64,000 nucleotides of DNA from Candidatus Omnitrophota bacterium (GTDB taxonomy: Bacteria; Omnitrophota; Gorgyraeia; Zapsychrales; Zapsychraceae): contig JADFYJ010000014.1 of the NCBI GenBank assembly GCA_015233115.1, positions 11,028-75,027 on the forward strand, given 5' to 3'. Shown here piece by piece: positions 10,220 through 52,635 of this stretch. Numbering within the stretch: the first letter of the stretch is position 1; the number at the start of each line of letters is the position of its first letter. The position numbers and the translations under genes are program-made. Under the pieces are notes generated by a model that was given only the letters and a program-made list of their open reading frames with translations, was not told the origin of the DNA and made no database searches.

Positions 10220-10220
10220 C

Positions 10221-10262: not shown

Positions 10263-10281
10263 GGGTTTATAGGGATTGATC

Positions 10282-34962: not shown

Positions 34963-36829
34963 TATCTCTTTGACCAACCAAGAACTGTCTTTTAAAAATA
35001 TCCTCCAACACGGAGGACTCCTGCTGGCATTGCTCGTCGCGGTAATTTTGCGGATTGCTTATGCCATCGACTTTTGGCACAGCCCATTCTTTCCTTTAAT
35101 GCCATACACGGACGGGTATTACTATTACACTTGGGCCAATGACATCGCGAGCGGCGAATTTATTAAAACTACTGCTTTCATGAAATGGCCGCTTTACGCT
35201 TATTTCTTTAGTTTGTTGATCAGGTTTTGTTCTGACCCTCTGACGTCTCTTTACATTTTTCAGTTCGCCGCTGGGGTCTTAACCTGCGGCCTTATTTATT
35301 TTATTTCCCTTAAAATTTTTAATAGGCCTACTGCGGTCATCGCAGGGCTACTTTGCGCTGTTTACACGCCTTTTATTTTTTATGAAGGACTGGCGACCTA
35401 TACCAGCTTATCTATTTTACTGGAAGCGGTTTTCTTACTTTTTGTTCTTAACTCGAGAGGTTCTGTTGCGCCAAACCGATTTTTTTCTCTAGGCCTGATA
35501 GCAGGGATTTGTTTCATTTTGCAGGGGAATATCATTATTTTCAGCTTGGCGGCTTTGGTCTGGCTGTTGAGCACAAATGCTAGCGCGCGGCCTAAATTTT
35601 TAAGCCTGGCGGTTTGTTTTTTTCTGGGTTTAGGTGCTGTGGTCAGTATAACGGCTATGATGAATTTTTGCGCGGAGAAAGATGCAGTCGCCGTCACTGG
35701 GAATTTCGGATTTAATTTTTATTCCGGTAACAATTCTCAGGCCAGGGGAATGGCTACCTATGATAATGATATCAGCCGGAATCAGGAAGATATGCTGCGC
35801 GATGCGCGTATTGTAGCGCAATCTTCTTTGCATAAAAAACTTAAGACTTCTGAAGTATCACATTTTTGGTTTAAAAAGAGCACGGCGTTTATTAAAGAAC
35901 ATCCGGGGCAATACTTGCACTTATTATTTCAGAAAGCTTTGTTAATATTTTGTCCTGAGAATACACAGCCTGAAAAAGAATATTCCGCCGCGTTTAAAAA
36001 TATCCGTCTTTTACCATTGTTTCAACCTGCGGCAGTTATTATTTTTCCTCTGGCTCTGTTCGGATTCATTTTTAGTCTGAAACATCGACGGAATGCCGCG
36101 CTTCTTTATTGCGCAATCCTTTCATGCGTGCAGGGTATGCTATTATTTTTTGTCATTGATAAACTTCGCATCCATATGATGCCATTTTTAATCATTCTTG
36201 CCGCTTATGGCATTTATTCTCTGTTTGATATCATTCGTAACAAAGAGTACTTAAAAATGGGGGGAATGGTGATTCTTCTCATTTTTTGTTTTATTCTGAT
36301 TAACCAGCGGTCAATCTTACCCGCGCAAAATAATTCTCGCCTCTTGGACCGCCAGAATCTTTACGATCAATATTTGGATCAGGCAGACAGCTTTGAGAGC
36401 GGTGGGGAAATTCTTAAAGCCATTCAGGCTTTAAAGACGGCATCTGTTATAGGCCCGGACAATCGCAGGGCTCCGTTTAGAATGGGGATCATTTTGGTTT
36501 CTTTAGGTGACTTGAAGGGGGCTGAAGAAAATTTTAAGCGTGCGATCACTTTAAGTCCCACTTGTGTTGATGCTTTGTATAATTTAGGTTTTATTTATAA
36601 TAAGCAGCAAAAATATTTGCAAGCTTTGGAGTCGTTGATCAGAGCTGCGGATCTCAATCCTGATGATGCACGGGTACATTTTGAATTGGGTATCGCATAC
36701 AAAGAAAGCCATGACTTAAAGAATGCTGCAACTGAACAGGAATTAGCCTTGAAAAAAATGGCGCGGTGGCGAGTTAGGGAACGTTCGTTGATTATCAGGG
36801 AACTTGGCGTCATCAAACAAATCCGTTAA
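34952..36829 (+). CDS. Polytopic membrane protein (GT-C/ArnT-PMT-like) with C-terminal TPR repeats
   Basis: More than 10 predicted TM segments then TPR-like repeats (NLGFIYNKQQKYLQALESLIRAADLNPDDARVHFELGIAY). Confidence 0.4.
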   Translation: MLDDISLTNQELSFKNILQHGGLLLALLVAVILRIAYAIDFWHSPFFPLMPYTDGYYYYTWANDIASGEFIKTTAFMKWPLYAYFFSLLIRFCSDPLTSLYIFQFAAGVLTCGLIYFISLKIFNRPTAVIAGLLCAVYTPFIFYEGLATYTSLSILLEAVFLLFVLNSRGSVAPNRFFSLGLIAGICFILQGNIIIFSLAALVWLLSTNASARPKFLSLAVCFFLGLGAVVSITAMMNFCAEKDAVAVTGNFGFNFYSGNNSQARGMATYDNDISRNQEDMLRDARIVAQSSLHKKLKTSEVSHFWFKKSTAFIKEHPGQYLHLLFQKALLIFCPENTQPEKEYSAAFKNIRLLPLFQPAAVIIFPLALFGFIFSLKHRRNAALLYCAILSCVQGMLLFFVIDKLRIHMMPFLIILAAYGIYSLFDIIRNKEYLKMGGMVILLIFCFILINQRSILPAQNNSRLLDRQNLYDQYLDQADSFESGGEILKAIQALKTASVIGPDNRRAPFRMGIILVSLGDLKGAEENFKRAITLSPTCVDALYNLGFIYNKQQKYLQALESLIRAADLNPDDARVHFELGIAYKESHDLKNAATEQELALKKMARWRVRERSLIIRELGVIKQIR

Positions 36830-37032
36830 TAATGATAATATTCTTTTAATGATTGTCATTTAATATGGTCTATAGTAAAATCACTTCAAGTTTATTTGTA
36901 AGTTGTTAATACAAAAATACTTGTGCTATGGATCATTGGGGATACTTTACAGGGAAATTCGTGCTGTCTTCCGGCAGGCAGGAATAGCCCCTACGTTTTT
37001 TACTAATCGCTTTCTTTGTTCCGTGATTAAAT

Positions 37033-37479
37033 ATGAAAGAACTTAAAAGAACTAATACAAAAAAATTGGGTGAGGTACTCGTCGAGAGGGGAGTCATTAA
37101 TCACCAACAGCTTAACAAGGCACTGGAAATTTGGGAGACTAAAGGCGGTCTCATGGGTGAAACGTTAGTTGATCTGAAATTTGCCACTGAAGAAGATATC
37201 GCGCAAGCCTTAACCTGCCAATATGGGTTTCCTTTCTTGCCTTTGACGAATTATGAAGTTGATCCTGCTGTTATTCATTCCGTACCTAAAAAAATATGCC
37301 AGGAATATGTTTTGGCTCCGATTGATAAAATTGGTAAAAGTATAACCTTAGCCATGGCCAATCCTTTAAATACGTTCGCGATCGAAGAGATTGAAAAAGT
37401 AACAGAATGTTCAATCCAGGTTTTTGTCAGTACCGGGACAGAAATTAAGAAGTTTTTAGAAAAAAACTACGTGGAGTGA
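37033..37479 (+). CDS. Stand-alone MshEN/GspE-N-like domain protein (putative c-di-GMP receptor)
   Basis: Two tandem 24-residue motifs KLGEVLVERGVINHQQLNKALEIW and LMGETLVDLKFATEEDIAQALTCQ fit the MshEN consensus RLGxxLVxxGxIxxxQLxxALxxQ. Confidence 0.6.
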   Translation: MKELKRTNTKKLGEVLVERGVINHQQLNKALEIWETKGGLMGETLVDLKFATEEDIAQALTCQYGFPFLPLTNYEVDPAVIHSVPKKICQEYVLAPIDKIGKSITLAMANPLNTFAIEEIEKVTECSIQVFVSTGTEIKKFLEKNYVE

Positions 37480-37480
37480 T

Positions 37481-39259
37481 ATGGCCTTCCTAAAGGACCG
37501 GATCAAAGAAATTTTGTTGAGGGATAAACATCTCTCTGCCTCTGATCTTGAAAAAGCGCTGGGTGAACAACAGCGTAAAGGCGGGGAATTAAGCCGGATT
37601 CTTATTGATATGAAATTGATTGATGAAGATACGTTGACGAGCGTATTGAGTCAAAGCCTAGGTATTCCTGTCATTAGTATTACCCGCATTAAAATAGACC
37701 CTCAAGTGATTAAATTTATAGCTCGCGATGTTGCCTTGAAATATCAAATTATGCCCGTTTCTTTAATTGGCCAGACTTTAACTTTGGCTATGGCTGATCC
37801 GTTGAACATTTTTGTTATTGATAATGTCAAGGCGGTAACCGGGTATACGATTAATCCCATTATCGGGCGCAAAGCGGAAATCGCGGGCGCGATTGAACAA
37901 TATTACAAAAAAACGGAAGCGCCTAAAGAAGAAGCTTCAGAAGAATCTCGTGAAGAGTCTTTGGATAAAATTAGTGATTTAATGGGAGATATGGCGAATG
38001 CGGAAGAGCTTGATGAGATTAAGTCGGATGAATTTATCGGGTCTTCGTCGGGTGTGGAAGAGATTAAAGATGAGGCGCCGATTATCCGTCTGACGGATTC
38101 GATCGTCCGGCAATCGGTTCTTATGAAATCCAGCGACGTTTTTATTGAACCTTTAGAAAAAGAAATGCGGGTGAGGCTGAGAGTTGACGGGGTTATCCGG
38201 GAGATTGACCGTCTACCCAAAGCGATTTTGGCGCCATTGGTATCGCGCATTAAAGTTATTTCAAATCTGGATATTTCCGAACACCGGCTCCCTCAAGATG
38301 GACGCTTTAAGATGATCGTGTCCGCGGATAAAGAAGTTGATTTCCGGGTGAATGTTTTACCGACCGCGTTAGGGGAAAAGGTGTGTTTACGCGTGCTGGA
38401 CCAGACGGGTACGGTTTTGGATGTGGAAAAACTAGGGTTTGAGGCCAGTTCTTTACGGCGGTTAAAAGAATGCGCGCTTAAACCGCATGGCATGATTTTG
38501 ACTTGCGGCCCTACGGGTAGTGGAAAAACCACCACGTTGTATTCGATTCTCAAACACGTCGACTCTCCGGAAAAAAATATTGTGACGGTGGAAGATCCGG
38601 TCGAATACCAGTTTAAGGGAGCGTGCCAGGTCAATGTCAAGCCCGCCATGGGACTGACGTTCGCGACGAGCTTGCGCTCAATTCTTCGGCAGGATCCGGA
38701 CATAATTATGATCGGAGAGATCCGTGACGCGGAAACTTTGGATATTGCCGTGAAAGCCGCTTTGACGGGACATTTGGTATTGAGTTCGCTGCATACCACT
38801 ACCGCTTCGGGTTCTGTGGTGCGGATGGTGAATATGGGGGTAGAACCGTTTTTAATTTGTTCTTCGGTTTTAGCGATTATTGCTCAGCGGCTTTTAAGAA
38901 AAGTCTGCCAGAATTGTAAAGAGCCCTATACTCCTCCGGAGGCGGTGATTGAAAAAGTGGGACTGCGGCAGGTGACCCAAGACAAAGAAATTATTTTATA
39001 CCGTGGAAAAGGCTGTGAGCAATGTTTTAAGAGCGGATATAAGGGCCGGGTGGGGATTACGGAGATTTTGGTTATGACGCCGGCGCTTAAAGAAGTGATT
39101 ATGGCCATGGCTGGTGAACCCAAAGTCAAAGAGGTTTCCCGCCGTGAAGGGATGATCACCATGCGGGAGGACGCGTTATTGAAAGCTTTGAAAGGGTTAA
39201 CGACGTTAGAAGAAGTTCTACGGATCACTGCGCCGGATGAGATATTGGAGAAAAAGTAA
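37481..39259 (+). CDS. pilB: Type IV pilus assembly ATPase PilB/GspE family
   Basis: Walker A GPTGSGKTTT; N-terminal MshEN/GspE-N-like repeats (RIKEILLRDKHLSASDLEKALGEQ); C-terminal CxxC...CxxC tetracysteine. Confidence 0.85.
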   Translation: MAFLKDRIKEILLRDKHLSASDLEKALGEQQRKGGELSRILIDMKLIDEDTLTSVLSQSLGIPVISITRIKIDPQVIKFIARDVALKYQIMPVSLIGQTLTLAMADPLNIFVIDNVKAVTGYTINPIIGRKAEIAGAIEQYYKKTEAPKEEASEESREESLDKISDLMGDMANAEELDEIKSDEFIGSSSGVEEIKDEAPIIRLTDSIVRQSVLMKSSDVFIEPLEKEMRVRLRVDGVIREIDRLPKAILAPLVSRIKVISNLDISEHRLPQDGRFKMIVSADKEVDFRVNVLPTALGEKVCLRVLDQTGTVLDVEKLGFEASSLRRLKECALKPHGMILTCGPTGSGKTTTLYSILKHVDSPEKNIVTVEDPVEYQFKGACQVNVKPAMGLTFATSLRSILRQDPDIIMIGEIRDAETLDIAVKAALTGHLVLSSLHTTTASGSVVRMVNMGVEPFLICSSVLAIIAQRLLRKVCQNCKEPYTPPEAVIEKVGLRQVTQDKEIILYRGKGCEQCFKSGYKGRVGITEILVMTPALKEVIMAMAGEPKVKEVSRREGMITMREDALLKALKGLTTLEEVLRITAPDEILEKK

Positions 39260-39481: not shown

Positions 39482-41200
39482 ATGGCTAAGACGGTAAAAG
39501 ATACAATTTTGGATGAATTGGTGGGTTCGGGAAAGTTTCCGCCTAAAGTGTTGGAAGAGGCTAAACAGCTTCACCTGCGCGAAAAGATTCCTTTTGAGAA
39601 AGCTTTGATTAAAAAAGGCTTGATTACAGAGGAAGATTGGCTGTTAATGCTGGTTTCTGAACTGGGGATACCATTCGTAAATTTGGCCCGGTATAAATTA
39701 ACGCCCTACTTGCAGGAAATCATTCCAGAAAATATTGCCCGTCAGTATAAAATTGTTCCTTTGGTGGATACGCAATTTTCTGTGACCATCGCGACAGCTG
39801 ACCCCTTAAATGTTTACGCGTTGGATGATCTTAAAAACATTACAGGGAAACGGATTGATGTGGTGTTGAATACAGAGAGTGAAATTATCAAGAAAATTGA
39901 TAATTTTTACGGTGATCCAACGAAACGGGATGTCCCGGAATTTAAGGCTCAGGATGCGGCTTTTGAAGAATTCGAGCTGGTATCTCAAAAAGAAGAAGAT
40001 GACGCGAATTCAGGAGGCGAGGCTGTTGATGAAAGCGAAAAAGCACCAATCATCCGTATGGTTAATCTGATATTGAAAGAAGCCTTGCGTCAACGGGCGT
40101 CGGATATTCATATTGAACCTATGGAAGAGTGCGTCCGGGTGAGGTATCGGATTGATGGGGTTTTGCGGGATGTGCTGACCATTCCTAAAAAAAATCAAAA
40201 CGCGATGGCAACGCGTATCAAGATTATGTCGCGGTTGGATATTACCGTCAATCAAGCGCCGCAGGATGGACGTTTTAAGCTAACGTTAAAAGAAAAGAGC
40301 GTGGATTTTCGCGTTTCCATTCTGCCTGCCACATTTGGCCCCAAAGTGGTTATGCGGATTTTGGATCGTTCCAAATTAGCGGTTGGGGTGGACGGTCTGG
40401 GATTAACTCCTAAAGCTTTGCAGTTGATCAAGGACGGAATTAAAAAACCATTTGGGATGATGTTAGTCACTGGCCCGACAGGAAGCGGAAAATCTACGAC
40501 TTTGTATTCTATTGTGAATGAATTAAATACAGTGGAAAGAAATATCATTACTGTAGAAGATCCGGTTGAATATTTGTTAGAAGGTTTAACTCAGATTCAG
40601 GCCATGCCGGAAATCGGGCTCACCTTCGCGGAAGGCTTGCGTTCCATTTTACGTCAGAGTCCAGACGTGGTCATGGTGGGAGAAATCCGCGATGGGGAGA
40701 CTGCGGATATCGCGATCAAAGCGTCTCTGACTGGGCAATTGGTATTGTCAACGCTGCATACCAACGACGCGGCTGGGGCATTGACGCGTCTGGTGGATAT
40801 GGGAGTGGAGCCGTTTTTAGTGGCTTCCAGTTTGGTGCTGGTCACAGCTCAGCGCTTGTGCCGCAGGATTTGCCCTCACTGCAAAGCAGAAATAAAAATT
40901 GATCCGGATGTGTTAAAACGTTTGGGGGATATTGTTCCGAAGGACTCCATTTTTTATCAAGGCAAAGGTTGTGAGCAATGCAAAAACACCGGCTATACCG
41001 GCCGTTTATGTATTACAGAAGTTTTAGACATTGATGATGAGATACGAATGATGCTGTTGCAAGGAAAGACGTCTGACGAGATTAAAAAATATTCCCGCGA
41101 AAAAAAAGGTATGGCTACGTTGTATCAAGATGCTATGGCTAAATGTTTGCAAGGAATTACCTCTCTAGAAGAGGTCTTTAGGATTACGTCTAGTGACTAA
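39482..41200 (+). CDS. Second PilB/GspE-family secretion ATPase paralog
   Basis: Walker A GPTGSGKSTT; colinear with preceding gene; C-terminal CPHC...CEQC. Confidence 0.85.
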   Translation: MAKTVKDTILDELVGSGKFPPKVLEEAKQLHLREKIPFEKALIKKGLITEEDWLLMLVSELGIPFVNLARYKLTPYLQEIIPENIARQYKIVPLVDTQFSVTIATADPLNVYALDDLKNITGKRIDVVLNTESEIIKKIDNFYGDPTKRDVPEFKAQDAAFEEFELVSQKEEDDANSGGEAVDESEKAPIIRMVNLILKEALRQRASDIHIEPMEECVRVRYRIDGVLRDVLTIPKKNQNAMATRIKIMSRLDITVNQAPQDGRFKLTLKEKSVDFRVSILPATFGPKVVMRILDRSKLAVGVDGLGLTPKALQLIKDGIKKPFGMMLVTGPTGSGKSTTLYSIVNELNTVERNIITVEDPVEYLLEGLTQIQAMPEIGLTFAEGLRSILRQSPDVVMVGEIRDGETADIAIKASLTGQLVLSTLHTNDAAGALTRLVDMGVEPFLVASSLVLVTAQRLCRRICPHCKAEIKIDPDVLKRLGDIVPKDSIFYQGKGCEQCKNTGYTGRLCITEVLDIDDEIRMMLLQGKTSDEIKKYSREKKGMATLYQDAMAKCLQGITSLEEVFRITSSD

Positions 41201-41203
41201 AAA

Positions 41204-41520
41204 AGAGTAACAAAGTAACCGAGTAACAGAGTAACCGAGTAAAAAAGTAACAACGGAAAGAATATAAAAAAATAAAAAACGAATGTGAAAAGAAAAGCAT
41301 TGGAAAAAAATATAAATTGTAAATTGCAAAGATTCGCTTTTTCTATTCAATATTGATGCTAAAATATCAAAGAATAGGATTTTGTTAAAATATAGAAGAA
41401 CATAAGGTTCGTGGCACAAGTAAGAAATTTTTATTATAAATAATATAATGCTTGCTTTGTGTTTTTAATTTTTTATTGTTTTATCATTGTTACTTTGTTA
41501 CTCGGTTACTCTGTTACTCT
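41204..41520. repeat. Intergenic island between pilB paralog and pilC, same GAGTAAC family
   Basis: Left agagtaacaaagtaaccgagtaacagagtaaccgagtaaaaaagtaacaacgg 41204-41252; right cattgttactttgttactcggttactctgttactct 41485-41520. Confidence 0.8.
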
Positions 41521-41536
41521 AAAGTGAGGTTAAATT

Positions 41537-42739
41537 ATGCCGACTTTTAAATATGTAGCCAAAGATGCTGAATCCAAAAGTTTGACCGGTAAAATTGCGG
41601 CAGATGATAAGAATGCGGTGGTTGAAGAGTTACGCAAACGGAAACTGACTATTATTTCTGTAACGGAAATGAAGGGCGAAAAAGTCAAAACCGGCTCCCG
41701 TAGAAAAGTTAAAGCGGAAGAAATTGTGCTTTTTGCCCGTCAGTTAGCCACGATGGTGGAGGCAGGTATGCCAATCTTGCAGGGCTTAAACGCTTTGGCG
41801 GACCAGACCACCAATGAAGGGTTTAAAAAAGTTTTGACTGAAGTTGAAACAGATATCAAGCATGGTTCGAGTTTATCCTCTGCATTTGCCAAACATCCGC
41901 ATGTGTTTAATAATTTATTTATTAATCTCGTAAAAGTCGGGGAAACCGGCGGTATTTTGAGTACAGTTTTAGATCGGGTTTCCACGTATATGGAAAAAAC
42001 TTTGAGTTTACAGCGTAAGGTGAAATCCGCTTTAGTTTATCCGAGCGTAGTCGTATCTATGGCGATCATTATCACTGTGGTGCTTTTGATTAAAGTCGTT
42101 CCCACTTTTACGGGAATTTATTCTTCTTTCGGGAAAGAATTGCCGGCGATGACGCAAGTACTGGTTAACGCGAGTAATTTTCTGCAGTCTTATATAATTT
42201 TTATTATTATTGCCATTGTTGGTTTAGGGTTTGGGCTTGCGCGCTGGCATAAAACTGAAAAAGGCGCTTTGGTGATTGATGGTGCTGTGTTACGTTTGCC
42301 GGTTTTTGGAGAGCTTTTACGTAAAGTCGCGGTGAGTCGGTTTACCCGTACGCTGGCTACGTTGGTTCAGAGCGGGGTGCCTATTCTCGAATCATTGAAT
42401 ATTGTTGAAAAAACTATTGGAAATAAAGTTTTGGAAAATGTTATCAAAGATGTTCAAGTGAGTGTCAGGCAAGGGGAAAGCTTATCTGTGCCGTTGGAAA
42501 AGAGCACAGTATTTCCTCCCATGGTCACCCGCATGATTTCCATTGGAGAAAAATCCGGGCAGATGGAAAAAATGCTTTTAAAAGTTTCTGAATTTTATGA
42601 TGATCAAGTGGACACGGCTGTTGATGGCTTGACGAGTATGATTGAACCTCTTATCATTGGGGTCATGGGAGTGGTGATCGGTTTTATCGTTATCGCGCTT
42701 TTTATGCCGATCTTGTCAATGTCGCAGTTGGTGAGCTAG
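41537..42739 (+). CDS. pilC: Type IV pilus inner-membrane platform protein PilC/GspF family
   Basis: 400 aa, two GspF-type repeats with 3 TM helices; follows PilB genes. Confidence 0.85.
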   Translation: MPTFKYVAKDAESKSLTGKIAADDKNAVVEELRKRKLTIISVTEMKGEKVKTGSRRKVKAEEIVLFARQLATMVEAGMPILQGLNALADQTTNEGFKKVLTEVETDIKHGSSLSSAFAKHPHVFNNLFINLVKVGETGGILSTVLDRVSTYMEKTLSLQRKVKSALVYPSVVVSMAIIITVVLLIKVVPTFTGIYSSFGKELPAMTQVLVNASNFLQSYIIFIIIAIVGLGFGLARWHKTEKGALVIDGAVLRLPVFGELLRKVAVSRFTRTLATLVQSGVPILESLNIVEKTIGNKVLENVIKDVQVSVRQGESLSVPLEKSTVFPPMVTRMISIGEKSGQMEKMLLKVSEFYDDQVDTAVDGLTSMIEPLIIGVMGVVIGFIVIALFMPILSMSQLVS

Positions 42740-43799: not shown

Positions 43800-44366
43800 G
43801 TGCCAGTGGCTGAAAAATTTGATGCGCAAGTTATTGCGGCAAAACTTATGGGAAGTGTTCAAGACTTAATGGAAAAGACCTGCAAGTCTAAACTTTCGGA
43901 AAAACCAGTTATGGAGACGAAAGAAATCATTGAGTATGGCAGTAGGATGCGCGTGTTAGGACTTTCAAAATTCGACGGACCGTGTTATGTGGCTGCGGTT
44001 AATTTATATTTAAATCAGAAAAAATCCGAAGATAAAGATGCCTGCGGGGTCATTGTGAGTTATTGGGAACAGGAGACAGCGGAGGGTTTTGTCCGCGCTT
44101 TACAAAAGGGTTTAGACCTTGAAGACCCGGATGTGATATTGGATAGTTGCGGAGAATTTTGTAATAGTATTGCCGGCCAATTTAAAAACGAGTTAGCGGC
44201 GTTTGGTTATCCGGAGCTAAATCTTTCTACGATTATCAAAGCCCGGAACGAAATTGATGAGGGAGTTGATTTTCCTTTTAGCGAAGGAGAATATTGCGAG
44301 CTGTCATTTAAAGTAAAAAATAAAAAAGTGGTGGTTGTTTCTTTGGTTATGGCGCCCCCCGCATAA
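43800..44366 (+). CDS. CheX/CheC-family phosphatase-like protein
   Basis: DSCGEFCNSIAGQF fits the CheC/CheX/FliY D-x3-E-x2-N-x3-G active-site motif; located in the che cluster. Confidence 0.4.
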   Translation: MPVAEKFDAQVIAAKLMGSVQDLMEKTCKSKLSEKPVMETKEIIEYGSRMRVLGLSKFDGPCYVAAVNLYLNQKKSEDKDACGVIVSYWEQETAEGFVRALQKGLDLEDPDVILDSCGEFCNSIAGQFKNELAAFGYPELNLSTIIKARNEIDEGVDFPFSEGEYCELSFKVKNKKVVVVSLVMAPPA

Positions 44367-44393
44367 AGACTGGATTTTAAAGGAGCTCATTTT

Positions 44394-44810
44394 ATGACAC
44401 TGATGAATGTCCCTCAAGAAAGAAGAAAATATATCCGGCTTCCGCTGAAATGCATATTAAGGTGTTCTCCTTTTGCTGGACATGGTTCAGAATTGTGGTC
44501 AGGCGAAGTGACCACGGCTACTAAAAATATCAGCGCTGGCGGTATTTTATTTGAAAGCCGGCACCCTTATGAATTAGGAGCTTTATTGCAAGTCGAGGCG
44601 GACGTTCCGGGTTGGGAAAAATTTAAAACCGAATTTTATAAAGAAGAGCAGATTTCTCGGTCTTTGCCAGTGGTTATTTTGGTGTCGGTCGTGCGTGTTG
44701 AGGCGATTGAGATTGGGAGGAAATACGATATTGGAGCCGCTTTTGTGGGGATTGACCGGGGACATCAAGGAGCGCTGGTTAAATATATCAAAAGCCGGGT
44801 GAAGGAGTAG
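44394..44810 (+). CDS. PilZ-domain c-di-GMP-binding protein
   Basis: RRKYIRL (RxxxR) and NISAGGILFES (D/NxSxGG) PilZ motifs. Confidence 0.75.
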   Translation: MTLMNVPQERRKYIRLPLKCILRCSPFAGHGSELWSGEVTTATKNISAGGILFESRHPYELGALLQVEADVPGWEKFKTEFYKEEQISRSLPVVILVSVVRVEAIEIGRKYDIGAAFVGIDRGHQGALVKYIKSRVKE

Positions 44811-44817
44811 AAACCCA

Positions 44818-45333
44818 ATGCCAGAAATTAATTTTGAAGAGAGTACGAGCCGGGTGGCTAGGACTATAAAACAATTTGTGTGTTTTAAATTGGCGGCAGA
44901 AGAATACGCGATTGATATTAGTTATATTCAGGAAGTGATCCGGGTGGTGACGATTACTCAGGTGCCGCAGATGCCGGAGTTCTGCTGGGGTGTAATTAAT
45001 GTCAGGGGAAATGTTCTTCCGGTTTTTGATTTGCGGCGGTTGTTTCATTTGCCAGAAAAAAAATTTGATGCACAATCCAAATTTTTAATCGCTTCAATCG
45101 GAAATTTTATTGCCAGTTTTATTGTGGATGAGATTGTGGATAATATTAAATTAGAATCATCCGCTATTGATCCAACTCCCGCGGTTAAAATGAAAATCGA
45201 TGCAGATTGTATTAAAGGATTAGGCGAGTTGGATGACCGGATGATCGTGATCATCAATTTAGAAAAAGTCCATGATCATATTTTGAAAATAATTAATACT
45301 TTTTCAAAAATTAAGGGACCTGTCCATGAATAA
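44818..45333 (+). CDS. cheW: Chemotaxis coupling protein CheW
   Basis: FVCFKLAAEEYAIDISYIQEVIR...INVRGNVLPVFDLRRLF. Confidence 0.85.
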   Translation: MPEINFEESTSRVARTIKQFVCFKLAAEEYAIDISYIQEVIRVVTITQVPQMPEFCWGVINVRGNVLPVFDLRRLFHLPEKKFDAQSKFLIASIGNFIASFIVDEIVDNIKLESSAIDPTPAVKMKIDADCIKGLGELDDRMIVIINLEKVHDHILKIINTFSKIKGPVHE

Positions 45334-45748
45334 AAACCATCGGATTCAAGCGGATAACCGCCGAGTGTATACCCGCATTGACCGCCCGCATTTGCTTAAA
45401 GTCAAAATGTTTGATCTCAAGGATCAGAGTTCGGTGCGGAAAATAGAAGCCATTACTCGGAACGTATCTGCCGGGGGGTTAGCATTTGAATCGGAACAAT
45501 TTTTTGAATCCGGAACAGTTTTGGAGATTGAGCTAGATACGCCGGGATGGGAAAAACTCAGAGGCGTCTTTGACGGAGAAAAGGGCGATGCCTTGCCCTC
45601 AGCGGTGATGCTCTTGGCCAAAGTTATCCGGACAAGAGTTATTGAAGAGGATTTGTATGATATTGCTGTTTCTTTTGTTGGGATCGATGACCGGCATCGC
45701 CATGCTCTGACGAAATATGTCCAAGAACGAGAAAACAGCGCGGGTTAA
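45326..45748 (+). CDS. PilZ-domain c-di-GMP-binding protein (second)
   Basis: RRVYTRIDR and NVSAGGLAFES motifs. Confidence 0.75.
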   Translation: MNKNHRIQADNRRVYTRIDRPHLLKVKMFDLKDQSSVRKIEAITRNVSAGGLAFESEQFFESGTVLEIELDTPGWEKLRGVFDGEKGDALPSAVMLLAKVIRTRVIEEDLYDIAVSFVGIDDRHRHALTKYVQERENSAG

Positions 45749-45761
45749 AAGGAGGGGATGA

Positions 45762-46706
45762 GTGTCTTCGGAAAAAATTCGACTTTCAAATGTGCTATTA
45801 GACGTTGGAACGAATGAATTGGAAATTGTGGAATTTTGCCTGGCGGATAGTTTTTATGGGATTAATGTCATGAAGGTCAGGGAGATTATCCGCTGTCCAG
45901 AAAATATTGTAGCTGTGCCTCATGCTCATCCGGCTGTCGATGGTGTGATTAATGTCCGGGGCACGATTATTCCGGTTGTGAATTTGGCGCGTCAATTTGG
46001 CATCGATGATACCAAAGCCACTAAAGCGGTTCAGCGCATTATTATTTCCCAGTTTAATAAATTAACAATAGGTTTTCTGGTCAGTTCTGTCTCACGGATC
46101 CACAGGTTTTCGTGGCAACAGGTCGTCGCTCCGTCTGGCATGATTTCTAATGGTGATACTTATGTTGTTTCTATGGTCAAGATGGATGAAAAAATAATTT
46201 TATTATTAGATTTTGAAAAAATAGCTTTTGACGTTAGTCCTGAAGCACGCCCCCCGCAAGTGGAAGCTTCGCCGGTTAAAGAATTGCCAGCGGCATTTGA
46301 CCGCTCGGCTAAAACCATTCTGGTGGCAGAAGATTCGAAGTTTTTAAGGGCTGTTATGGTCGAGGCCTTGTCGAAATTAGGTTACAAAGTGATCGCGACG
46401 AGTGATGGAGAAGAAGCGTGGCAAGAGTTTGAAACTCATAATGCTAACAATGCGGCTGGCGGGGTTCCCATCGATTTATTAGTCAGCGATATTGAGATGC
46501 CGCGGATGGATGGGTTACATTTGGTGCGGAAGATAAAGGTTTCTAACGGATTTCGTAAGGTTCCTTGCATTGTTTTTTCATCTATGATAAATACCGATTT
46601 GTCCCAGCGTTGTGCCGCTATTGGGGTGGATGTCACGATCACTAAGCCGGAAATTAGTAAGCTTGTTGAAGCGGTAGAGGGCCATTTCAATCAAGGCAGG
46701 GCATGA
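45762..46706 (+). CDS. cheV: CheV (CheW-like domain fused to receiver domain)
   Basis: N-terminal CheW-like domain (LEIVEFCLADSFYGINVMKVREII...INVRGTIIPVVNLARQFG) and C-terminal REC (ILVAEDSKF...DLLVSDIEMPRMDG). Confidence 0.8.
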   Translation: MSSEKIRLSNVLLDVGTNELEIVEFCLADSFYGINVMKVREIIRCPENIVAVPHAHPAVDGVINVRGTIIPVVNLARQFGIDDTKATKAVQRIIISQFNKLTIGFLVSSVSRIHRFSWQQVVAPSGMISNGDTYVVSMVKMDEKIILLLDFEKIAFDVSPEARPPQVEASPVKELPAAFDRSAKTILVAEDSKFLRAVMVEALSKLGYKVIATSDGEEAWQEFETHNANNAAGGVPIDLLVSDIEMPRMDGLHLVRKIKVSNGFRKVPCIVFSSMINTDLSQRCAAIGVDVTITKPEISKLVEAVEGHFNQGRA

Positions 46707-47533
46707 ATATCGACATAAAAGATTCTGAATATAAAGCGGTCCATGACTTGATGTACCGTTACGCGGGCGTCCATCTGACAGAAAAGAAAAAGCCGTTGAT
46801 TGTGGCGCGGTTAAGGAAACGGCTGGTGGAGTTTTCTTTAAACACGTTGGGCGATTACATCAAATATTTGCAAACTCATTTAAAAGAAGAATTGCCCAAT
46901 TTTATTAGTGCTTTAACGACGAATGAAACATATTTTTTCCGGCATACGAAACAATTTAATTTATTTTTTGAAGAAATACTACCTGAATTGTGCAGCCGCA
47001 AAAAAAGGGCGGGTCAGAAACTGATTAAAATTTGGTCTGCGGCATCATCGACAGGGGAAGAAGCCTATTCCATCGCCATAGTTTGCCAGGAGTTTATGGC
47101 TAAGCATCCGGGTTGGCAATTCCAAATTTATGCGTCAGACATTGATTATCAAGTACTGCAGAAGGCCCGGGAAGGGATTTACGGTGAAAAAAGTGTGGCA
47201 AAAGTTACAGAATCTTTGATGCGTAAATATTTTACGGCGAGGCATGCGGGAATTATAAAGCGGTTCGAGTTAAACCATCAGATAAAACAATGTGTGACGT
47301 TTGAGAATCACAATTTAATGAATCCGCCGAAACGCGCGGATTATGACGTAATTTTTTTACGGAATGTTTTGTACTATTTTGATAAATCGACTCAACAAAC
47401 CGTAGCCAGCTTATTAGAATCCGCATTATTGCCGGGCGGATATTTTTTTGTCAGTCTATCAGAAAATTTACATGATCGTCCCAATCAATTAGAATATTTG
47501 AGAAATGGAATTTACCGCAAGGCTGATAGATAG
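46703..47533 (+). CDS. cheR: Chemotaxis protein methyltransferase CheR
   Basis: CheR all-alpha N-domain plus SAM methyltransferase (KIWSAASSTGEEAYSIAI). Confidence 0.85.
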   Translation: MNIDIKDSEYKAVHDLMYRYAGVHLTEKKKPLIVARLRKRLVEFSLNTLGDYIKYLQTHLKEELPNFISALTTNETYFFRHTKQFNLFFEEILPELCSRKKRAGQKLIKIWSAASSTGEEAYSIAIVCQEFMAKHPGWQFQIYASDIDYQVLQKAREGIYGEKSVAKVTESLMRKYFTARHAGIIKRFELNHQIKQCVTFENHNLMNPPKRADYDVIFLRNVLYYFDKSTQQTVASLLESALLPGGYFFVSLSENLHDRPNQLEYLRNGIYRKADR

Positions 47534-47569
47534 GTCACAAAGGCACAAGGTCACACCTTAAAGTTAGGA

Positions 47570-48655
47570 ATGTTTATGTTGAAAAAAATTAAAGTGGTGA
47601 TCGCGGATGATTCGGCGTTTTTTCGACAGGTTCTGAAAACTGTTTTGGAAGAATCCAGGAAGATCGTGGTCGTTGCCGCGGCGAAGAATGGGAAAGAAGC
47701 GGTTGAATTTGTCAAAACTCTTAACCCGGATATTTTGATTTTGGATTGTGATATGCCGGTGATGAATGGTTTGGATGCTTTAAAGCGGGTCATGGATGAG
47801 AACCCCTTACCGGTTTTGATGTTTAGCGCGTTAACACAGGAAGGGGCGAAAGAGACGTTGACCGCTTTATCATTGGGGGCTGTGGATTTTTTGCTCAAAC
47901 CCGCGGGGCATGCCCATGCGCTAGATGAAGTCGCGGAAGAATTGATCAAAAAAATTGAAACAATTGTCCGCCAGGCCAAATGGCGGGTTTCTCTTCCTTC
48001 GGTCAACCGGCCGAAGCTGTCCAATGGGGTTGAAACAGAAAATGTTCAGGTTCAAGACCGCCGGCCGGCTGTGGAGTTGAGGCGAAGAACAGTCGATTTG
48101 ATTGCTATGGGATCATCAACCGGCGGAGTGCAGGCGTCAACGAGAGTATTGATGGCTTTGCCAGAAAATACGGCCCCGATTGTATGGGTTCAGCATATGC
48201 CTCCGGAATTTACCAAAAATTTTGCTGAACGGTTAAATGGGTTGTGTCAAATGGAAGTGAAAGAGGCCAAAGATGGAGACCTGGTGAAGCGGGGAATTTG
48301 TTATCTGGCGCCAGGCGGATTTCAGATGCGCTTGTTAAAAAAAGGTAATGATTATTGTGTGAGTGTTAAATTAGGTGAAAAAGTTTCCGGTCAATGCCCG
48401 TCTTGTAATGTCTTGTTTGATTCGGCGGCAGAATATTTTGGTGACAATGCGCTGGGGATTATATTAACGGGCATGGGAGACGACGGAGCCTCTGGCTTAG
48501 CCAAAATGCACCAAAAAGGCGCATATGTGATCGGCCAGAATGAAAAATCCTGTGTGGTTTACGGGATGCCTAAAGCCGCGTATAATTTAGGCGCGGTGGA
48601 TATTGAACTGGATATTCAAGAAATTTCGGATGCCATTATTAAAGCCGGAGGTTGA
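47570..48655 (+). CDS. cheB: Chemotaxis methylesterase/deamidase CheB
   Basis: N-terminal REC (VVIADDSAFFRQ...ILDCDMPVMNG) plus methylesterase domain (IAMGSSTGG; GMGDDGASG). Confidence 0.9.
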   Translation: MFMLKKIKVVIADDSAFFRQVLKTVLEESRKIVVVAAAKNGKEAVEFVKTLNPDILILDCDMPVMNGLDALKRVMDENPLPVLMFSALTQEGAKETLTALSLGAVDFLLKPAGHAHALDEVAEELIKKIETIVRQAKWRVSLPSVNRPKLSNGVETENVQVQDRRPAVELRRRTVDLIAMGSSTGGVQASTRVLMALPENTAPIVWVQHMPPEFTKNFAERLNGLCQMEVKEAKDGDLVKRGICYLAPGGFQMRLLKKGNDYCVSVKLGEKVSGQCPSCNVLFDSAAEYFGDNALGIILTGMGDDGASGLAKMHQKGAYVIGQNEKSCVVYGMPKAAYNLGAVDIELDIQEISDAIIKAGG

Positions 48656-48656
48656 G

Positions 48657-49082
48657 ATGATAAGAAATATTATCTTAGTCGTGGATGATGAAGAGCATAT
48701 GGTGAGCTTGTTGAAACAAGCTTTGGCGGATGATCATACGGAAGTGATTGGTGCTTCTGATGGACAAGAAGCTTTGGATTTGGTATCGAACCGGCATGTG
48801 GATTTGATCATTGCGGATAACAATATGCCTAAAATTCTGGGAGAAAATCTTTTTTTAGAAATTAAAAAAATGGATCCATTTGTTCAGCTGATCATGATTA
48901 CGGGATATCCGTCAGTCACAGTGATTGTTAAGATGCTGGAAGCGGGAGTATCAGATTTTTTAATCAAGCCTTTTGATCTAAATCAGATTCAATTGGTGGT
49001 TAAAGAAACATTAGGGAGGATCGAACGCTGGCGCAATTTGCGCAAAGAGTGGATGGCGTATAAGAAAAGAGGAATCGAGTAA
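48657..49082 (+). CDS. Single-domain response regulator (CheY-like receiver)
   Basis: ILVVDDEEHMVSLL...DLIIADNNMP...FLIKPF; ATG at 48657 two nt after the cheB stop. Confidence 0.8.
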   Translation: MIRNIILVVDDEEHMVSLLKQALADDHTEVIGASDGQEALDLVSNRHVDLIIADNNMPKILGENLFLEIKKMDPFVQLIMITGYPSVTVIVKMLEAGVSDFLIKPFDLNQIQLVVKETLGRIERWRNLRKEWMAYKKRGIE

Positions 49083-49140
49083 CCGAGTGACAGAGCAAAA
49101 ATGTTGATGGATAAAAGAAAAATTATATTAAGGGAGAATT

Positions 49141-50097
49141 ATGGGCAGCGAAAATAATGAATTGATAGGAGAGTTTATCGCGGAGAGTGAGGAATACTTG
49201 GCCGTTTTAAACCAGAAATTGCTCAAGGCTGAAGATGCCATTAAATCCGGCGTGGATATGTCTGCGGAAGAATTAAACGCTATGTTCCGTTCTGTGCATA
49301 CGATTAAAGGGACAGCCTCCTTTTTTGATTTGCAAAAGATCGTTCATTTAACGCATGATATGGAAGCCGTTTTATCCCGGATAAAAAAATTTGAAATGAA
49401 ATTGACGGCGCCTATCATAGATGTATTATTCGGTGCTTTTGATACATTACAAAAATTGGTCACGAATTTAAAAGAACAGGGCTCATTGGATTCAGTGGAT
49501 ATTAAAAAAAATATTCAGGAAATCGCGTTGATCTTAGATGAAAAGCCTGTTGAACCAAGTATTAAAGGGACTCAGCCGAGTTTGGGTTCGAATCAACCGG
49601 TTCTCCCTGTTGTTGCGGCAGGGACAGTTATCCCGGCGGCCGTTTCTATTCCGCCCGCCGCGGTTCAGGTCCCCAAAGGAGAACAGGATTTTGGGGTCAT
49701 GGAGATCAATGATAGATTTATGGAAGCTTTTGTTTCGGATATCGAAGATAATGTTGAGAATTTTAATAATGATCTGATCAAGCTGGAACAAACTGGGAAT
49801 CTCGATTTGGTCGGGAATTTGTTTCGTTATGCTCATACTGTAAAAGGTTCGTCCGGCGTCGTTAATTGTCAGCCTATGACAGAGGTGTCCCATAAGATGG
49901 AAAGCATTTTGTCAGTTTTTCGCGAGCAGAAAAAAACTATTGATACAGATACGGTCACTTTGCTTTTAGATGGAATTGATACGGTTAAATTTATTTTAAA
50001 TGCAATTAAAAAACAGACTCATCTGGTTTTAGATTTGCAGGCCATTACCGATAAATTAGATCAGCAATACAAGAAATTGATCAACCCTGGAATTTGA
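49141..50097 (+). CDS. cheA: CheA N-terminal fragment: two tandem HPt (P1) domains
   Basis: Two HPt signatures, FRSVHTIKGTASFF and FRYAHTVKGSSGVV, separated by a Pro/Val-rich linker; no kinase domain. Confidence 0.75.
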   Translation: MGSENNELIGEFIAESEEYLAVLNQKLLKAEDAIKSGVDMSAEELNAMFRSVHTIKGTASFFDLQKIVHLTHDMEAVLSRIKKFEMKLTAPIIDVLFGAFDTLQKLVTNLKEQGSLDSVDIKKNIQEIALILDEKPVEPSIKGTQPSLGSNQPVLPVVAAGTVIPAAVSIPPAAVQVPKGEQDFGVMEINDRFMEAFVSDIEDNVENFNNDLIKLEQTGNLDLVGNLFRYAHTVKGSSGVVNCQPMTEVSHKMESILSVFREQKKTIDTDTVTLLLDGIDTVKFILNAIKKQTHLVLDLQAITDKLDQQYKKLINPGI

Positions 50098-50121
50098 GTG
50101 TGCTGGAAGGAGTCACTGAAT

Positions 50122-51519
50122 ATGAATGAATCTGCCCCAATATCTGCGGCGCACAATACGGGAAAATCCGCTCCAGTGGAAGTTTCAACATTACGGATTG
50201 ATTCCCGAAAATTGGATTTATTGATGAATATGTCTGGAGAGTTGGTCACCTTACGCGCACAATTTTCTCGTTTAGTGGCATTATTCAGAAATGAGCTGAT
50301 GACCTACAAGGAAATGACTAAGGCTTTGGAAGAATTGAAAGATTCATCGCTGCAAATGGTGTCCAGCAAATTGGATGTCGAACGACGAAAAAAGAGCGAA
50401 GAACAGTTTGTACGGTTGATAGGAAATGTCGAGCAATATAAAAATGAGCTTAATTTTACGGCTCAAGTGCATTCGTTTGATGAGCTGACCGGGATGCTGG
50501 GCAAATTAGCTTCTGATATTCAGTCGGGTATTATGCAAACGCGTATGATTCCAGTGGAATGGGTTTTTACCCGCTTCAAACGGGTCATCCGGGACATGGC
50601 TAAAGAGTTAAATAAAAATGTTGATTTGAAAGTAGAAGGCGAAGATACGGAATTGGATAAAAAAATTGTGGATTGTTTAGCTGATCCACTTACGCATATG
50701 ATCCGAAATGCCATGGACCATGGAATTGATGATAAAGAAACCCGGCTTAAGTTGGGCAAACCGGAAATAGGAACTGTTTTTTTAAAAGCCGCTAACCGGG
50801 GTAACACCATTTTTATAGAAGTCGGAGATGATGGACGGGGTATTGATCCGGAACGGTTGGTTAAAAAAGCAATTGAAAAAGGAATTATCAATCAAGAACA
50901 GGCCCAGCGGATGAGTGAAAAAGAGAAATTACATTTGATGTTTTTACCGGGTTTTAGCACTGCAGAAGCGGTGACGGCTATTTCTGGACGCGGTGTGGGG
51001 CTGGATGTCGTGACGAATATGCTTAATGCCGTTAATGGGACTATTGATATTGAAACAAAAATTGATATGGGGTCTAAGTTTATTTTAAAAATACCTTTAA
51101 CGTTAGCTATTATTCAAGCGTTATTGATTAAGATCAATGAACAGGTATTTGCGGTTCCTATTGAGGCAGTCATTGAGATTATTAAAGTGAGTACGGGGGA
51201 TATATATTCCATTGAAGGAAATGATACTGTGAAATTGCGCGGGCACGCTTTAAGTTTAGTCAGTTTAGAGCAGGTCATCAAGATACAGGGATGTTCAGAA
51301 AAAAATGGAGATGGTTTAAAAACAGTCGTAGTCATTGGTGATAAAGAAAATCGCATCGGGGTGTTAGTGGACAGTCTGATTGGCGAAGATGAAATTGTCA
51401 TTAAACCTTTATCAGAACACTTCAGTCATGTTAAAGGCGTGAGCGGGGCATCCATTTTAGGGGATGGAAATGTGGTGTTGATCTTAGACCCAAATGCCAT
51501 AATCAGCGAAGCGCAATAG
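50122..51519 (+). CDS. cheA: CheA C-terminal fragment: dimerization (P3), HATPase (P4) and CheW-like (P5) domains
   Basis: STLRIDSRKLDLLMNMSGELV (P3); HMIRNAMDHGID N-box; GRGVGLDVV G2 box; C-terminal CheW-like domain; AAGGAG RBS then ATG 50122 directly after the upstream stop. Confidence 0.8.
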   Translation: MNESAPISAAHNTGKSAPVEVSTLRIDSRKLDLLMNMSGELVTLRAQFSRLVALFRNELMTYKEMTKALEELKDSSLQMVSSKLDVERRKKSEEQFVRLIGNVEQYKNELNFTAQVHSFDELTGMLGKLASDIQSGIMQTRMIPVEWVFTRFKRVIRDMAKELNKNVDLKVEGEDTELDKKIVDCLADPLTHMIRNAMDHGIDDKETRLKLGKPEIGTVFLKAANRGNTIFIEVGDDGRGIDPERLVKKAIEKGIINQEQAQRMSEKEKLHLMFLPGFSTAEAVTAISGRGVGLDVVTNMLNAVNGTIDIETKIDMGSKFILKIPLTLAIIQALLIKINEQVFAVPIEAVIEIIKVSTGDIYSIEGNDTVKLRGHALSLVSLEQVIKIQGCSEKNGDGLKTVVVIGDKENRIGVLVDSLIGEDEIVIKPLSEHFSHVKGVSGASILGDGNVVLILDPNAIISEAQ

Positions 51520-51536
51520 CAGCGGAAAAGGCAGCA

Positions 51537-52025
51537 ATGAATGAAATGATTTTGATCCAGGTTGGAGTAGCTGATATCAAAGTCAGCAAAGCTCCGGCTA
51601 TGCTGATGACGAACTTAGGCTCATGCATTGCGGTATGTTTATATTATGAGCAAGGGCAGATCGGAGGCATGCTGCATTTGATGATGCCCCGCGCGGACGA
51701 AAAAGCTTTGGAATACCGGGGCTTTAAAAAAGAAAAATATGCGAATACTGGCATCCGTGAATTGGTGTATCAAATCAAACAGCAGTTTAGAGTTGACCAT
51801 TCGATGCTGACCGCCAAAATTTTTGGCGGCGGCCGTATTCTTCAAAATGTTTCCTTGGATATTGGGGCGGATAATGCCAAGGCGGCGCAGGACATTCTCC
51901 GGGAATTAGGAATCCGCATCATAGCATCTAAAGTTGGCGGGACCAAAGGGTATAATATTAGGTTTGATCTGTCGACGGGAAAAGTGCGTTGTCAGATTTT
52001 TGGCGAACAAGAACAGGAGTTTTAA
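51537..52025 (+). CDS. cheD: Chemoreceptor glutamine deamidase CheD
   Basis: IKVSKAPAMLMTNLGSCIAVCLY...GGMLHLMMP matches the CheD core with catalytic Cys. Confidence 0.8.
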   Translation: MNEMILIQVGVADIKVSKAPAMLMTNLGSCIAVCLYYEQGQIGGMLHLMMPRADEKALEYRGFKKEKYANTGIRELVYQIKQQFRVDHSMLTAKIFGGGRILQNVSLDIGADNAKAAQDILRELGIRIIASKVGGTKGYNIRFDLSTGKVRCQIFGEQEQEF

Positions 52026-52026
52026 C

Positions 52027-52635
52027 ATGGTTCATTCTAATAAAACCATCAACGCAATACAAATGATTGCTCGTTTAATTATTGATGAAGCATCCCGGGC
52101 TTTCTCAAAAATGATCAGGCAAGGCGTGAGCATTGAAATGCAAAACGCGTATTTTGATGATATTTCCAATGTGACAGCCAAGATTTGCAATGAATACAAT
52201 GAATACAAGGGAAGCGTAGGGGCCATCGTCGATTTGACAGGAGATGTTAAATTAAAATTTTTGTTTATGACGGATTTGAGTACAGCTCAGATTTTAACTG
52301 ACCTGTTACTGCGCCGCCAGACTGGTACAACCAAAGAATATGACATAAATGTTGAGAGTACGGTGCAGGAAATTGGGAATGTTCTTTCCTGTATTGTGGC
52401 GAATATGTTGGTCAATGATTTTCAAATTTCAATGACGCCGAGTGTACCGGTGGTTTTGCGGGATTTTGCCGGGACAATTTTTGCGGAATTTATCAGAGAT
52501 GTCGCTGACGAACGGCAGGAAGCGTTAGTCGTGGAGAGTAGATTTCTTCTTTCCAATCAGAAAATGAAGTGTCACATGTTTATTATGCCGGTTGGTGAAA
52601 GTGAGCAGATACTGCAGTATTTAACTTTTTCTTAA
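52027..52635 (+). CDS. CheC-like phosphatase (CheC/CheX/FliY family)
   Basis: Follows cheD (the classical cheC-cheD pairing is inverted here); EIGNVLSCIVANML resembles the CheC E-x2-N-x3-G...A motif. Confidence 0.4.
   Translation: MVHSNKTINAIQMIARLIIDEASRAFSKMIRQGVSIEMQNAYFDDISNVTAKICNEYNEYKGSVGAIVDLTGDVKLKFLFMTDLSTAQILTDLLLRRQTGTTKEYDINVESTVQEIGNVLSCIVANMLVNDFQISMTPSVPVVLRDFAGTIFAEFIRDVADERQEALVVESRFLLSNQKMKCHMFIMPVGESEQILQYLTFS

Follow-up and report, generated by a model that had tools for sequence, protein, structure and literature searches.

A stand-alone MshEN-domain protein encoded before tandem PilB-type ATPases in Omnitrophota, a candidate c-di-GMP-sensing module of the pilus motor

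INTRODUCTION

How might a second messenger reach a pilus motor whose own ATPases appear to have lost the residues that would hold it? This question is raised by a 64,000-nucleotide stretch of DNA from a Candidatus Omnitrophota bacterium (contig JADFYJ010000014.1, positions 11,028 to 75,027; hereafter referred to as the window), in which a small open reading frame (ORF) stands directly before two genes for PilB-type ATPases. The ORF occupies positions 37033–37479 of the window, stop codon included, on the forward strand, where the two ATPase genes, the PilC gene and the two PilZ genes described below also lie. It opens with ATG, closes with TGA and encodes a protein of 148 amino acids with a stand-alone MshEN domain, hereafter referred to as s1. 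MshEN is one of the few receptor domains for cyclic diguanosine monophosphate (c-di-GMP) that are widespread across bacterial phyla, and it is still unclear how the binding of the ligand alters the activity of PilB or MshE (PMC5013675; PMC11656802). On the evidence presented here, we lean towards the reading that s1 is a detached, complete MshEN domain serving as the c-di-GMP-sensing module of the Omnitrophota type IV pilus (or type-II-secretion-like) motor, on which it would act in trans.

RESULTS

s1 is one complete MshEN domain

The amino acid sequence of s1 is identical to that of HQL26_08115, a protein from a metagenome-assembled genome (MAG) of Candidatus Omnitrophica. The NCBIfam profile NF053729 ('c-di-GMP_motif'; cyclic di-GMP-binding domain, MshE-related) matched residues 11–61 with 57.9 bits (cut-off, 38; E = 6e-16), and the Pfam profile PF05157 (MshEN) matched residues 64–146 with 62 bits (cut-off, 23.1; E = 5e-17). 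The likeness of s1 to MshEN is far beyond chance. An AlphaFold2 model, generated from 29 orthologues and having a mean predicted local distance difference test (pLDDT) score of 89.7, consists of four helices (residues 12–18, 24–37, 41–47 and 53–64) followed by a unit of strands and helices. The top match of this model in a Foldseek search was 5HTL, the N-terminal domain of V. cholerae MshE (VcMshE) with c-di-GMP, with template-modelling (TM) scores of 0.81/0.85 and a root-mean-square deviation of 2.1 Å over 138 columns, and the register of the s1 motifs described below agrees with residues 7–118 of 5HTL. The next matches were the X. citri PilB-N:PilZ complex (7LKM) and the GSPII domains of Thermus PilF; 2D27 and 2D28 were matched as well. 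The original prediction, which was made from the sequence of the window and assigned s1 to this domain, had named a search with MshEN/GspE-N profiles and a comparison of an AlphaFold model with the complex that MshEN forms with c-di-GMP as its checks, and both came out in its favour; the lack of a significant profile match, which would have counted against it, did not occur.

The two 24-residue motifs that characterise the c-di-GMP site of MshEN are both present in s1. Motif I, K11–W34 (KLGEVLVERGVINHQQLNKALEIW; 37063–37134), agrees at all positions with the relaxed version of the motif given in Wang 2016 (PMC5013675). Motif II, L40–Q63 (LMGETLVDLKFATEEDIAQALTCQ; 37150–37221), contains the invariant G42 and Q63 and the conserved I56 and L60. 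The two are separated by a five-residue spacer, read from the sequence as ETKGG (37135–37149), which has the same length as that of VcMshE. Beyond the motifs, residues 64–146 (37222–37470) form the alpha/beta subdomain termed MshEN_C or T2SSE_N1, as indicated by the PF05157 match and by the strands and helices of the AlphaFold2 model. The original prediction described the 148-residue protein as consisting of the two motifs and called it a double MshEN module; the motifs are there, but the protein also has the T2SSE_N1 subdomain, and Pfam, AlphaFold2 and Foldseek agree on a single full MshEN domain, composed of a four-helix bundle (residues 11–63) and the alpha/beta subdomain (residues 64–146). 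By every sequence and fold criterion tested, s1 belongs to the MshEN domain family. It can be aligned without gaps to residues 7–142 of the ATPase encoded immediately downstream (31% identity), and is most simply read as a paralogue of the PilB N-domain that now constitutes a separate polypeptide.

Two other identities were considered for s1 and ruled out. Some of its orthologues are named 'type IV pilus assembly protein PilB' by JGI. s1 meets only positions 1–136 of the 564 positions of the TIGR02538 profile (71.6 bits versus a cut-off of 675), and Pfam and NCBIfam searches gave no PF00437 match for a T2SSE ATPase domain in the protein, which stops at residue 148; having no ATPase domain, it is not a PilB/GspE assembly ATPase (TIGR02538, TIGR02533). 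Nor is it a PA3740-type protein (MshEN–xT2SSE_N1), since it has a single MshEN domain and no second, diverged N1 domain.

Key residues of the predicted c-di-GMP site are conserved among s1 orthologues

We scored the conservation of the ligand site in 80 s1 orthologues of about 60% identity, using the numbering of VcMshE, in which a position equals the residue number of the window s1 minus 2. VcMshE reads the Hoogsteen edges of the guanines with its backbone amides at G11/D12 and G40/D41, and substitution of G11 or G40 abolishes both binding and function (PMC5013675). The equivalents of these glycines (G13 and G42 of s1) are glycine in all 80 orthologues, and the equivalent of Q61 (Q63 of s1) is likewise glutamine in 80 of 80. 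The position of Q32 is occupied by glutamine in 71 of the 80 and by tryptophan in two, the window protein (W34) being one of them; the relaxed search motif of Wang 2016 permits tryptophan at this position (PMC5013675). The leucine clusters of VcMshE, L10/L54/L58 and L25/L29/L39, correspond to L12/I56/L60 and L27/L31/M41 in the window s1, and these positions are hydrophobic in nearly all the orthologues, the equivalent of L29 being arginine in 4/80.

Position 1 of the motifs, whose residue stacks on guanine and is arginine in the consensus, is K11 in motif I and L40 in motif II of the window s1, and leucine is found at the latter position (R38 of VcMshE) in 77 of the 80 orthologues. In PilF's GSPII-B domain, the same positions are K167 and L196, and the dissociation constant (KD) of this domain for c-di-GMP is 6 nM (PMC11731258). 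Restoring the consensus there made binding weaker, by 25-fold for K167R and 4-fold for L196R, whereas K167L made it tighter (2 nM), and the PilF work widened the MshEN consensus to (R/K/L)LG... (PMC11731258). The glutamine substitutions Q190E and Q218E lowered the affinity of GSPII-B by 158-fold and 77-fold, respectively (PMC11731258). Judged from this pattern of residues and from the deviations taken up in the Discussion, binding of c-di-GMP by s1 is likely.

The N-domains of both ATPases retain the fold and appear to have lost the site

The first ATPase gene (PilB1; 37481–39259, 592 amino acids) starts 1 nucleotide past the s1 stop codon, and its product was identified by T2SSE (E = 4e-134) and TIGR02538 (630 bits). 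The second (PilB2; 39482–41200) encodes a PilB/GspE-like ATPase of 572 amino acids (T2SSE, E = 2.5e-135). Site residues were counted in the N-domains of 72 PilB1 and 65 PilB2 orthologues. In PilB1, the position of G11 is lysine or glutamine and never glycine, that of G40 is serine in 59/72, that of Q61 is glycine or serine (serine in the window) and that of R38 is glutamate, with glutamine kept at the Q32 position in 67/72. In PilB2, the G11 position is isoleucine, leucine or valine, the G40 position aspartate or glutamate, the Q61 position glutamate in 61 of the 65 and the R38 position serine, glycine or proline, and Q32 is glutamine in 55. The glutamate at Q61 corresponds to Q218E of PilF, which by itself lowers affinity 77-fold. 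The original prediction noted that PilB itself begins with MshEN-like repeats. The fold is indeed shared, but the segment RIKEILL... of the window PilB1 has lysine at the essential glycine of motif I and the second motif has serine there, so that the site is probably not working. We call the PilB1 site non-binding because of these glycine and glutamine substitutions, taken together with the published mutagenesis.

Both ATPases thus seem to keep an MshEN-fold N-domain from which the residues holding c-di-GMP have been lost, and within the operon only s1, with s2 (described below) where it occurs, keeps the residues expected of a working site. L081 and L083, relatives with 44% identity, showed the same division of site residues.

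The NF053729 profile failed as a separator of working and dead sites. At E ≤ 1e-9, it matched 29 of 29 s1 proteins and 29 of 30 PilB1 N-domains, the latter as well as s1, together with 3 of 30 PilB2 N-domains; the PilB2 of the window gave no match. The profile recognises the helical bundle and not a working site. Profile matches of this kind over-call working c-di-GMP sites, and receptor censuses therefore need checks at the level of residues.

A free MshEN protein before tandem PilB genes is the rule in Omnitrophota

s1 has more than 1000 homologues, and every one of the 120 best matches is 147–165 amino acids long and 60–85% identical to it. A scan of species genomes (one genome per species) yielded at least 525 confirmed stretches encoding an s1 relative. 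The best 80 of these at least 525 loci come from MAGs that are labelled Omnitrophota or, in automated submissions, 'uncultured Planctomycetales/Planctomycetia'. Related loci have a constant gene order, mreB-mreC-mreD-PBP2-rodA, s1, PilB1, PilB2 and PilC. We counted the adjacency of s1 and PilB in the 74 loci with enough downstream flank: a PilB gene directly follows s1 in 73 of them, with two PilB-like ATPases in a row, and about 50 of the junctions among these 73 loci are either overlaps or gaps of 10 nucleotides or less. The original prediction regarded a free MshEN in front of its ATPase as unusual; it is instead the standard layout of the whole phylum.

The block reaches into more distant relatives as well. 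Those with 44% identity (P0189 and P0163) retain s1-PilB-PilB-PilC, even without the upstream mre genes. As the PilB block is retained where the mre genes are absent, the ATPase pair is the stable partner of s1. Roughly 60 of the 150 best representatives of 50%-identity clusters have the size of a stand-alone protein.

Some related loci and proteins have other architectures. In L060, a single ORF of 1173 amino acids (L060:6481–10002) spans PilB1 and PilB2 as an apparent fusion, which hints that the two may act together. MshEN domains that are 38–47% identical to s1 occur fused to PilZ domains (P0159, P0208, P0230 and P0255), giving two types of c-di-GMP receptor in one protein, and in P0160 and P0264 MshEN is fused to a DnaA-type AAA+ ATPase domain. 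The MshEN–PilZ and MshEN–DnaA-type architectures are both absent from Suppl. Table 4 of Wang 2016.

A second MshEN protein or c-di-GMP enzymes occupy the PilB2–PilC interval in relatives

The conserved block ends with the gene for the PilC/GspF platform protein (41537–42739 in the window; Pfam T2SSF, E = 2.7e-66). The slot between PilB2 and PilC varies among the related loci; it is empty in 27 loci, as it is in the window, and in 31 of 60 it is filled by a second stand-alone MshEN protein, s2 (for instance, L003:10052–10564, L009:10001–10456 and L017:10181–10642, besides 28 further loci). s2 is about 150 amino acids long and 30–41% identical to s1. It keeps the residues equivalent to G11, G40, Q32 and Q61 in 32 of 32 sequences, and has tyrosine, phenylalanine or leucine at the R38 position. 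A tblastn search revealed no copy or remnant of s2 in the 337-nucleotide PilB2–PilC spacer of the window (41201–41536).

In other relatives, the slot contains enzymes of c-di-GMP turnover. A REC–HD-GYP phosphodiesterase is encoded there in L056 (6236–7303), L060 (10007–11074), L071 (9949–11025) and L081 (9821–10861), and a REC–GGDEF diguanylate cyclase in L050 (9897–10790; E = 1.7e-41). That turnover enzymes and additional MshEN receptors share one operon position argues that the motor is under c-di-GMP control.

PilZ, chemosensory and regulatory features of the window

Two single-domain PilZ proteins are encoded downstream of PilC, at 44394–44810 (Pfam PilZ, E = 5.7e-9) and 45326–45748 (E = 1.7e-7), and in both of them a motif search found RxxxR and NxSxxG. 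The presence of two canonical PilZ genes in the cluster points to the use of c-di-GMP by the organism. Their distances from the s1 start are about 7.4 and 8.3 kb, and not 5 kb as was originally stated. Of the three c-di-GMP receptors that had been proposed for the locus, the two PilZ proteins, with RxxxR and [DN]xSxxG, and s1 stay candidates, but PilB is unlikely to be an additional one.

Both PilZ genes are interleaved with a full chemosensory set, which extends over 43800–52635 of the window after PilC and a secreted coiled-coil protein. The order is CheX-like, PilZ, CheW, PilZ, CheV, presumed CheR, presumed CheB, REC, CheA, presumed CheD and a second CheX-like gene, where CheR and CheB are assigned by size and position without a profile and CheD is likewise presumed. 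This arrangement suggests that the pilus is under chemotactic as well as c-di-GMP control. The CheA-like gene (49141–51519) is interrupted: an Hpt ORF (49141–50097) is followed in the same frame by a kinase-core ORF starting at 50098 or 50122, with a lone TGA at 50095–50097 between them. The interruption could reflect a split CheA, read-through or a sequencing error.

As for regulation at the nucleic acid level, the window contains no Rfam match at the gathering score to a c-di-GMP riboswitch or another RNA; a long non-coding RNA match in 36750–37100 (E = 0.43) is a chance one. Scanning of 36600–37600 revealed a sigma-70-like site at 36853–36881 (10/12 matches), although such sites were not more numerous than in shuffled sequences, and no terminator between s1 and PilB1.

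DISCUSSION

The analysis establishes to which domain family s1 belongs, how it folds, which of its residues are conserved and to which genes it is linked; its ligand, its partner and the sign of its effect we infer in the following, conditional form. s1 would be made together with the two tandem PilB-type ATPases. The free protein would bind one molecule of c-di-GMP in its four-helix bundle, as VcMshE and PilF GSPII-B do. G13/E14 and G42/E43 would contact the ligand with their backbone amides and K11 and L40 by stacking, and further contacts would come from Q63 and from the leucine clusters (L12/I56/L60 and L27/L31/M41). Ligand-bound s1 would then dock, by its T2SSE_N1 subdomain or its bundle, on PilB1/PilB2 or their platform, and this docking would tune pilus assembly in one direction or the other. 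Action in trans gains support from the adjacency of PilB in 73 of the 74 loci, from the restriction of the site residues to the free protein and from the presence of c-di-GMP enzymes in the operons of some relatives.

Several observations weigh against this reading. Across the s1 orthologues, position 1 of motif I is mostly glutamine or histidine, next to an invariant K10, which is outside the published R/K/L consensus. The turn glycine G47 (motif II, position 10) is lysine in the s1 family, where the 2016 consensus has glycine. D108, which hydrogen-bonds guanine N2 in VcMshE, is replaced with asparagine in 54 of the 80 orthologues, including the window protein (N110), and the latter has W34 where Q32 contacts the phosphate. 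The motif match claimed in the original prediction holds in outline but not in full: in motif II, position 1 is L and position 10 is K where the 2016 consensus calls for R and G, respectively, and motif I ends with W, versus Q in 71/80. The designation of the PilB1 site as probably dead depends on just a few residues, and imperfect motifs can still bind c-di-GMP, according to Wang 2016 (PMC5013675). Motif searches, together with Pfam searches of the candidate response regulators and kinases, found no GGDEF, EAL or HD-GYP domain in the 64-kb window.

Gene context also provides counter-examples. L028 is the lone exception (1/74) to the adjacency of s1 and PilB: its MshEN gene (L028:5370–5831) comes after rodA and is followed by FabG-like and FabF-like genes of fatty-acid synthesis and a reductase (5828–10836). 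A rearrangement, or a contig that is chimeric, may account for this locus. P0186 (L085:6001–6465), a stand-alone MshEN protein of 154 amino acids and 39% identity, has a Rex-like regulator and ndk as its neighbours and lacks a PilB gene in its vicinity, so free MshEN proteins also occur away from pilus operons.

Some of these deviations could also be accommodated if s1 were a ligand-independent structural adaptor or decoy that docks, via T2SSE_N1, on the ring of PilB N-domains or on a PilM/GspL-like platform; conservation of the glycines and glutamines would then reflect folding or a protein interface and not a nucleotide. We consider this plausible but unlikely. The MshEN/N1 fold is a known docking module, and XpsE-N and the X. 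citri PilB-N bind partners and not c-di-GMP. Much of the strongest conservation in the s1 family lies outside the ligand site (YGFPYLPL, PIDKIGKS, C126 and Q129–T134), and the ligand contacts have changed from R9 to glutamine or histidine and from D108 to asparagine, with W34 in the window. A purely structural role, however, predicts something other than what is seen for G11, G40 and Q61, which are invariant in s1 and s2 and lost in both PilB N-domains of the same fold. It is also at odds with the HD-GYP and GGDEF enzymes within the operon of some relatives and with the lysine and leucine at position 1, which match those of the 6 nM binder. The changes at the R9, R38 and D108 equivalents (glutamine or histidine, leucine and asparagine, respectively, in the s1 family) might alternatively mean that s1 senses a different nucleotide, such as 3'3'-cyclic GMP-AMP (cGAMP) or another cyclic dinucleotide, and cGAMP is bound weakly by the MshEN domain of VcMshE. 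This strikes us as very improbable, given that guanine recognition by backbone amides and leucine clusters is intact, that leucine at the R38 position raises the affinity of PilF for c-di-GMP and that, in relatives, enzymes of c-di-GMP turnover are encoded in the same operon.

A further possibility concerns the partner rather than the ligand. s1 might pair with the downstream PilZ or chemosensory proteins, or with other targets, and form a relay for c-di-GMP with only a loose connection to the ATPases. MshEN–PilZ fusions among the 38–47%-identical relatives give a Rosetta-stone hint in this direction, X. citri PilB uses its MshEN fold to bind a PilZ protein (7LKM), and the window has, after PilC, a full che set along with two genes each of the PilZ and CheX-like kinds. 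PilZ and che genes were not seen in the flanks of the related loci, although these flanks mostly end at PilC, and it is PilB1/PilB2 that adjoin s1 in 73/74 loci; we accordingly rate such a relay as rather improbable. That s1 is no separate protein at all, being the product of a pilB gene that a frameshift or an assembly error has split, or of a programmed +1 frameshift at GAG-TGA-T that fuses it to PilB1, is hardly credible. The two ORFs are indeed 1 nucleotide apart, a +1 shift would join them, and s1 is 31% identical to the PilB1 N-domain. PilB1, however, has a complete N-domain of its own, and no fused (MshEN)2-ATPase was seen among the 74 loci. We rejected the split or frameshifted gene as the position of the stop is constant across the 80 orthologues, diverged though they are and variable in their C-terminal tails, whereas the sequence and spacing of the junction vary.

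Returning to s1 as a detached c-di-GMP sensor, a bolder version of this reading would treat s1, and s2 where it occurs, as 'keys' that can be exchanged and through which c-di-GMP operates a motor with two ATPases, bound s1 selecting the PilB paralogue, or a PilB1–PilB2 hetero-hexamer, that engages PilC. We regard it as speculative and rather unlikely. The 1173-amino-acid fusion ORF of L060 and the interchangeable use of one slot by s2, HD-GYP and GGDEF proteins are compatible with the local signalling module that it entails. If it were true, Omnitrophota would have moved the sensing of the second messenger off the motor polypeptide and onto a separate regulatory subunit.

The arrangement described here, with a small sensor protein separate from, and adjacent to, apparently dead copies in the ATPases, would make binding, docking and ATPase activation separable for study, and the s1 operon is a clean natural setting in which to ask how the ATPase is controlled by MshEN. 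s1 also provides a concrete and testable model of pilus control in an uncultured phylum. Neither a plain stand-alone MshEN protein nor one acting as a PilB cofactor is described in Wang 2016 with its Suppl. Table 4, in a 2024 review of PilB cofactors or in the Omnitrophota literature, as far as these sources are open-access; within the open-access literature, no c-di-GMP effector has been described in Omnitrophota. What is new here is the arrangement, in which a known receptor domain is detached throughout a phylum and labour is clearly divided.

Among the characterised MshEN domains, that of VcMshE (5HTL; PMC5013675) shares with s1 the two-subdomain fold and the two 24-residue motifs with a five-residue spacer, and within these motifs both glycines, the second of the glutamines and the leucine clusters. 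Unlike it, s1 is not fused to a T2SSE ATPase, and it has K and L for R, K for G47, N for D108 and W for Q32. Thermus thermophilus PilF GSPII-B (8PDK; PMC11731258), which regulates twitching and adhesion (PMC11731258), resembles s1 in having K and L at motif position 1 and is matched in fold; it differs in being one of three tandem domains covalently joined to an ATPase, and in keeping the turn glycine, D266 and both glutamines. The nearest characterised 'free' MshEN appears to be Pseudomonas aeruginosa PA3740, which is listed in Suppl. Table 4 of Wang 2016 as an MshEN protein with no ATPase domain, and which, as reported there, binds c-di-GMP and affects surface motility. PA3740, in contrast to s1, has an extra diverged N1 domain and is found in beta- and gamma-proteobacteria, and that entry describes no coupling to a PilB gene.

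The PilZ-FimX-PilB system of Xanthomonas and Pseudomonas (PMC8389850, PMC5595344) is alike in principle, as a non-binding PilB N-domain is signalled to by separate receptors that dock on it, and the Xanthomonas case may serve, by analogy, as a precedent for an input in trans to a PilB with a dead site (PMC8389850). In that system, a PilZ adaptor and a protein with an EAL domain act as the receptors, both of them unrelated in fold to MshEN, whereas the receptor proposed here, s1, would be a paralogue of the PilB N-domain itself.

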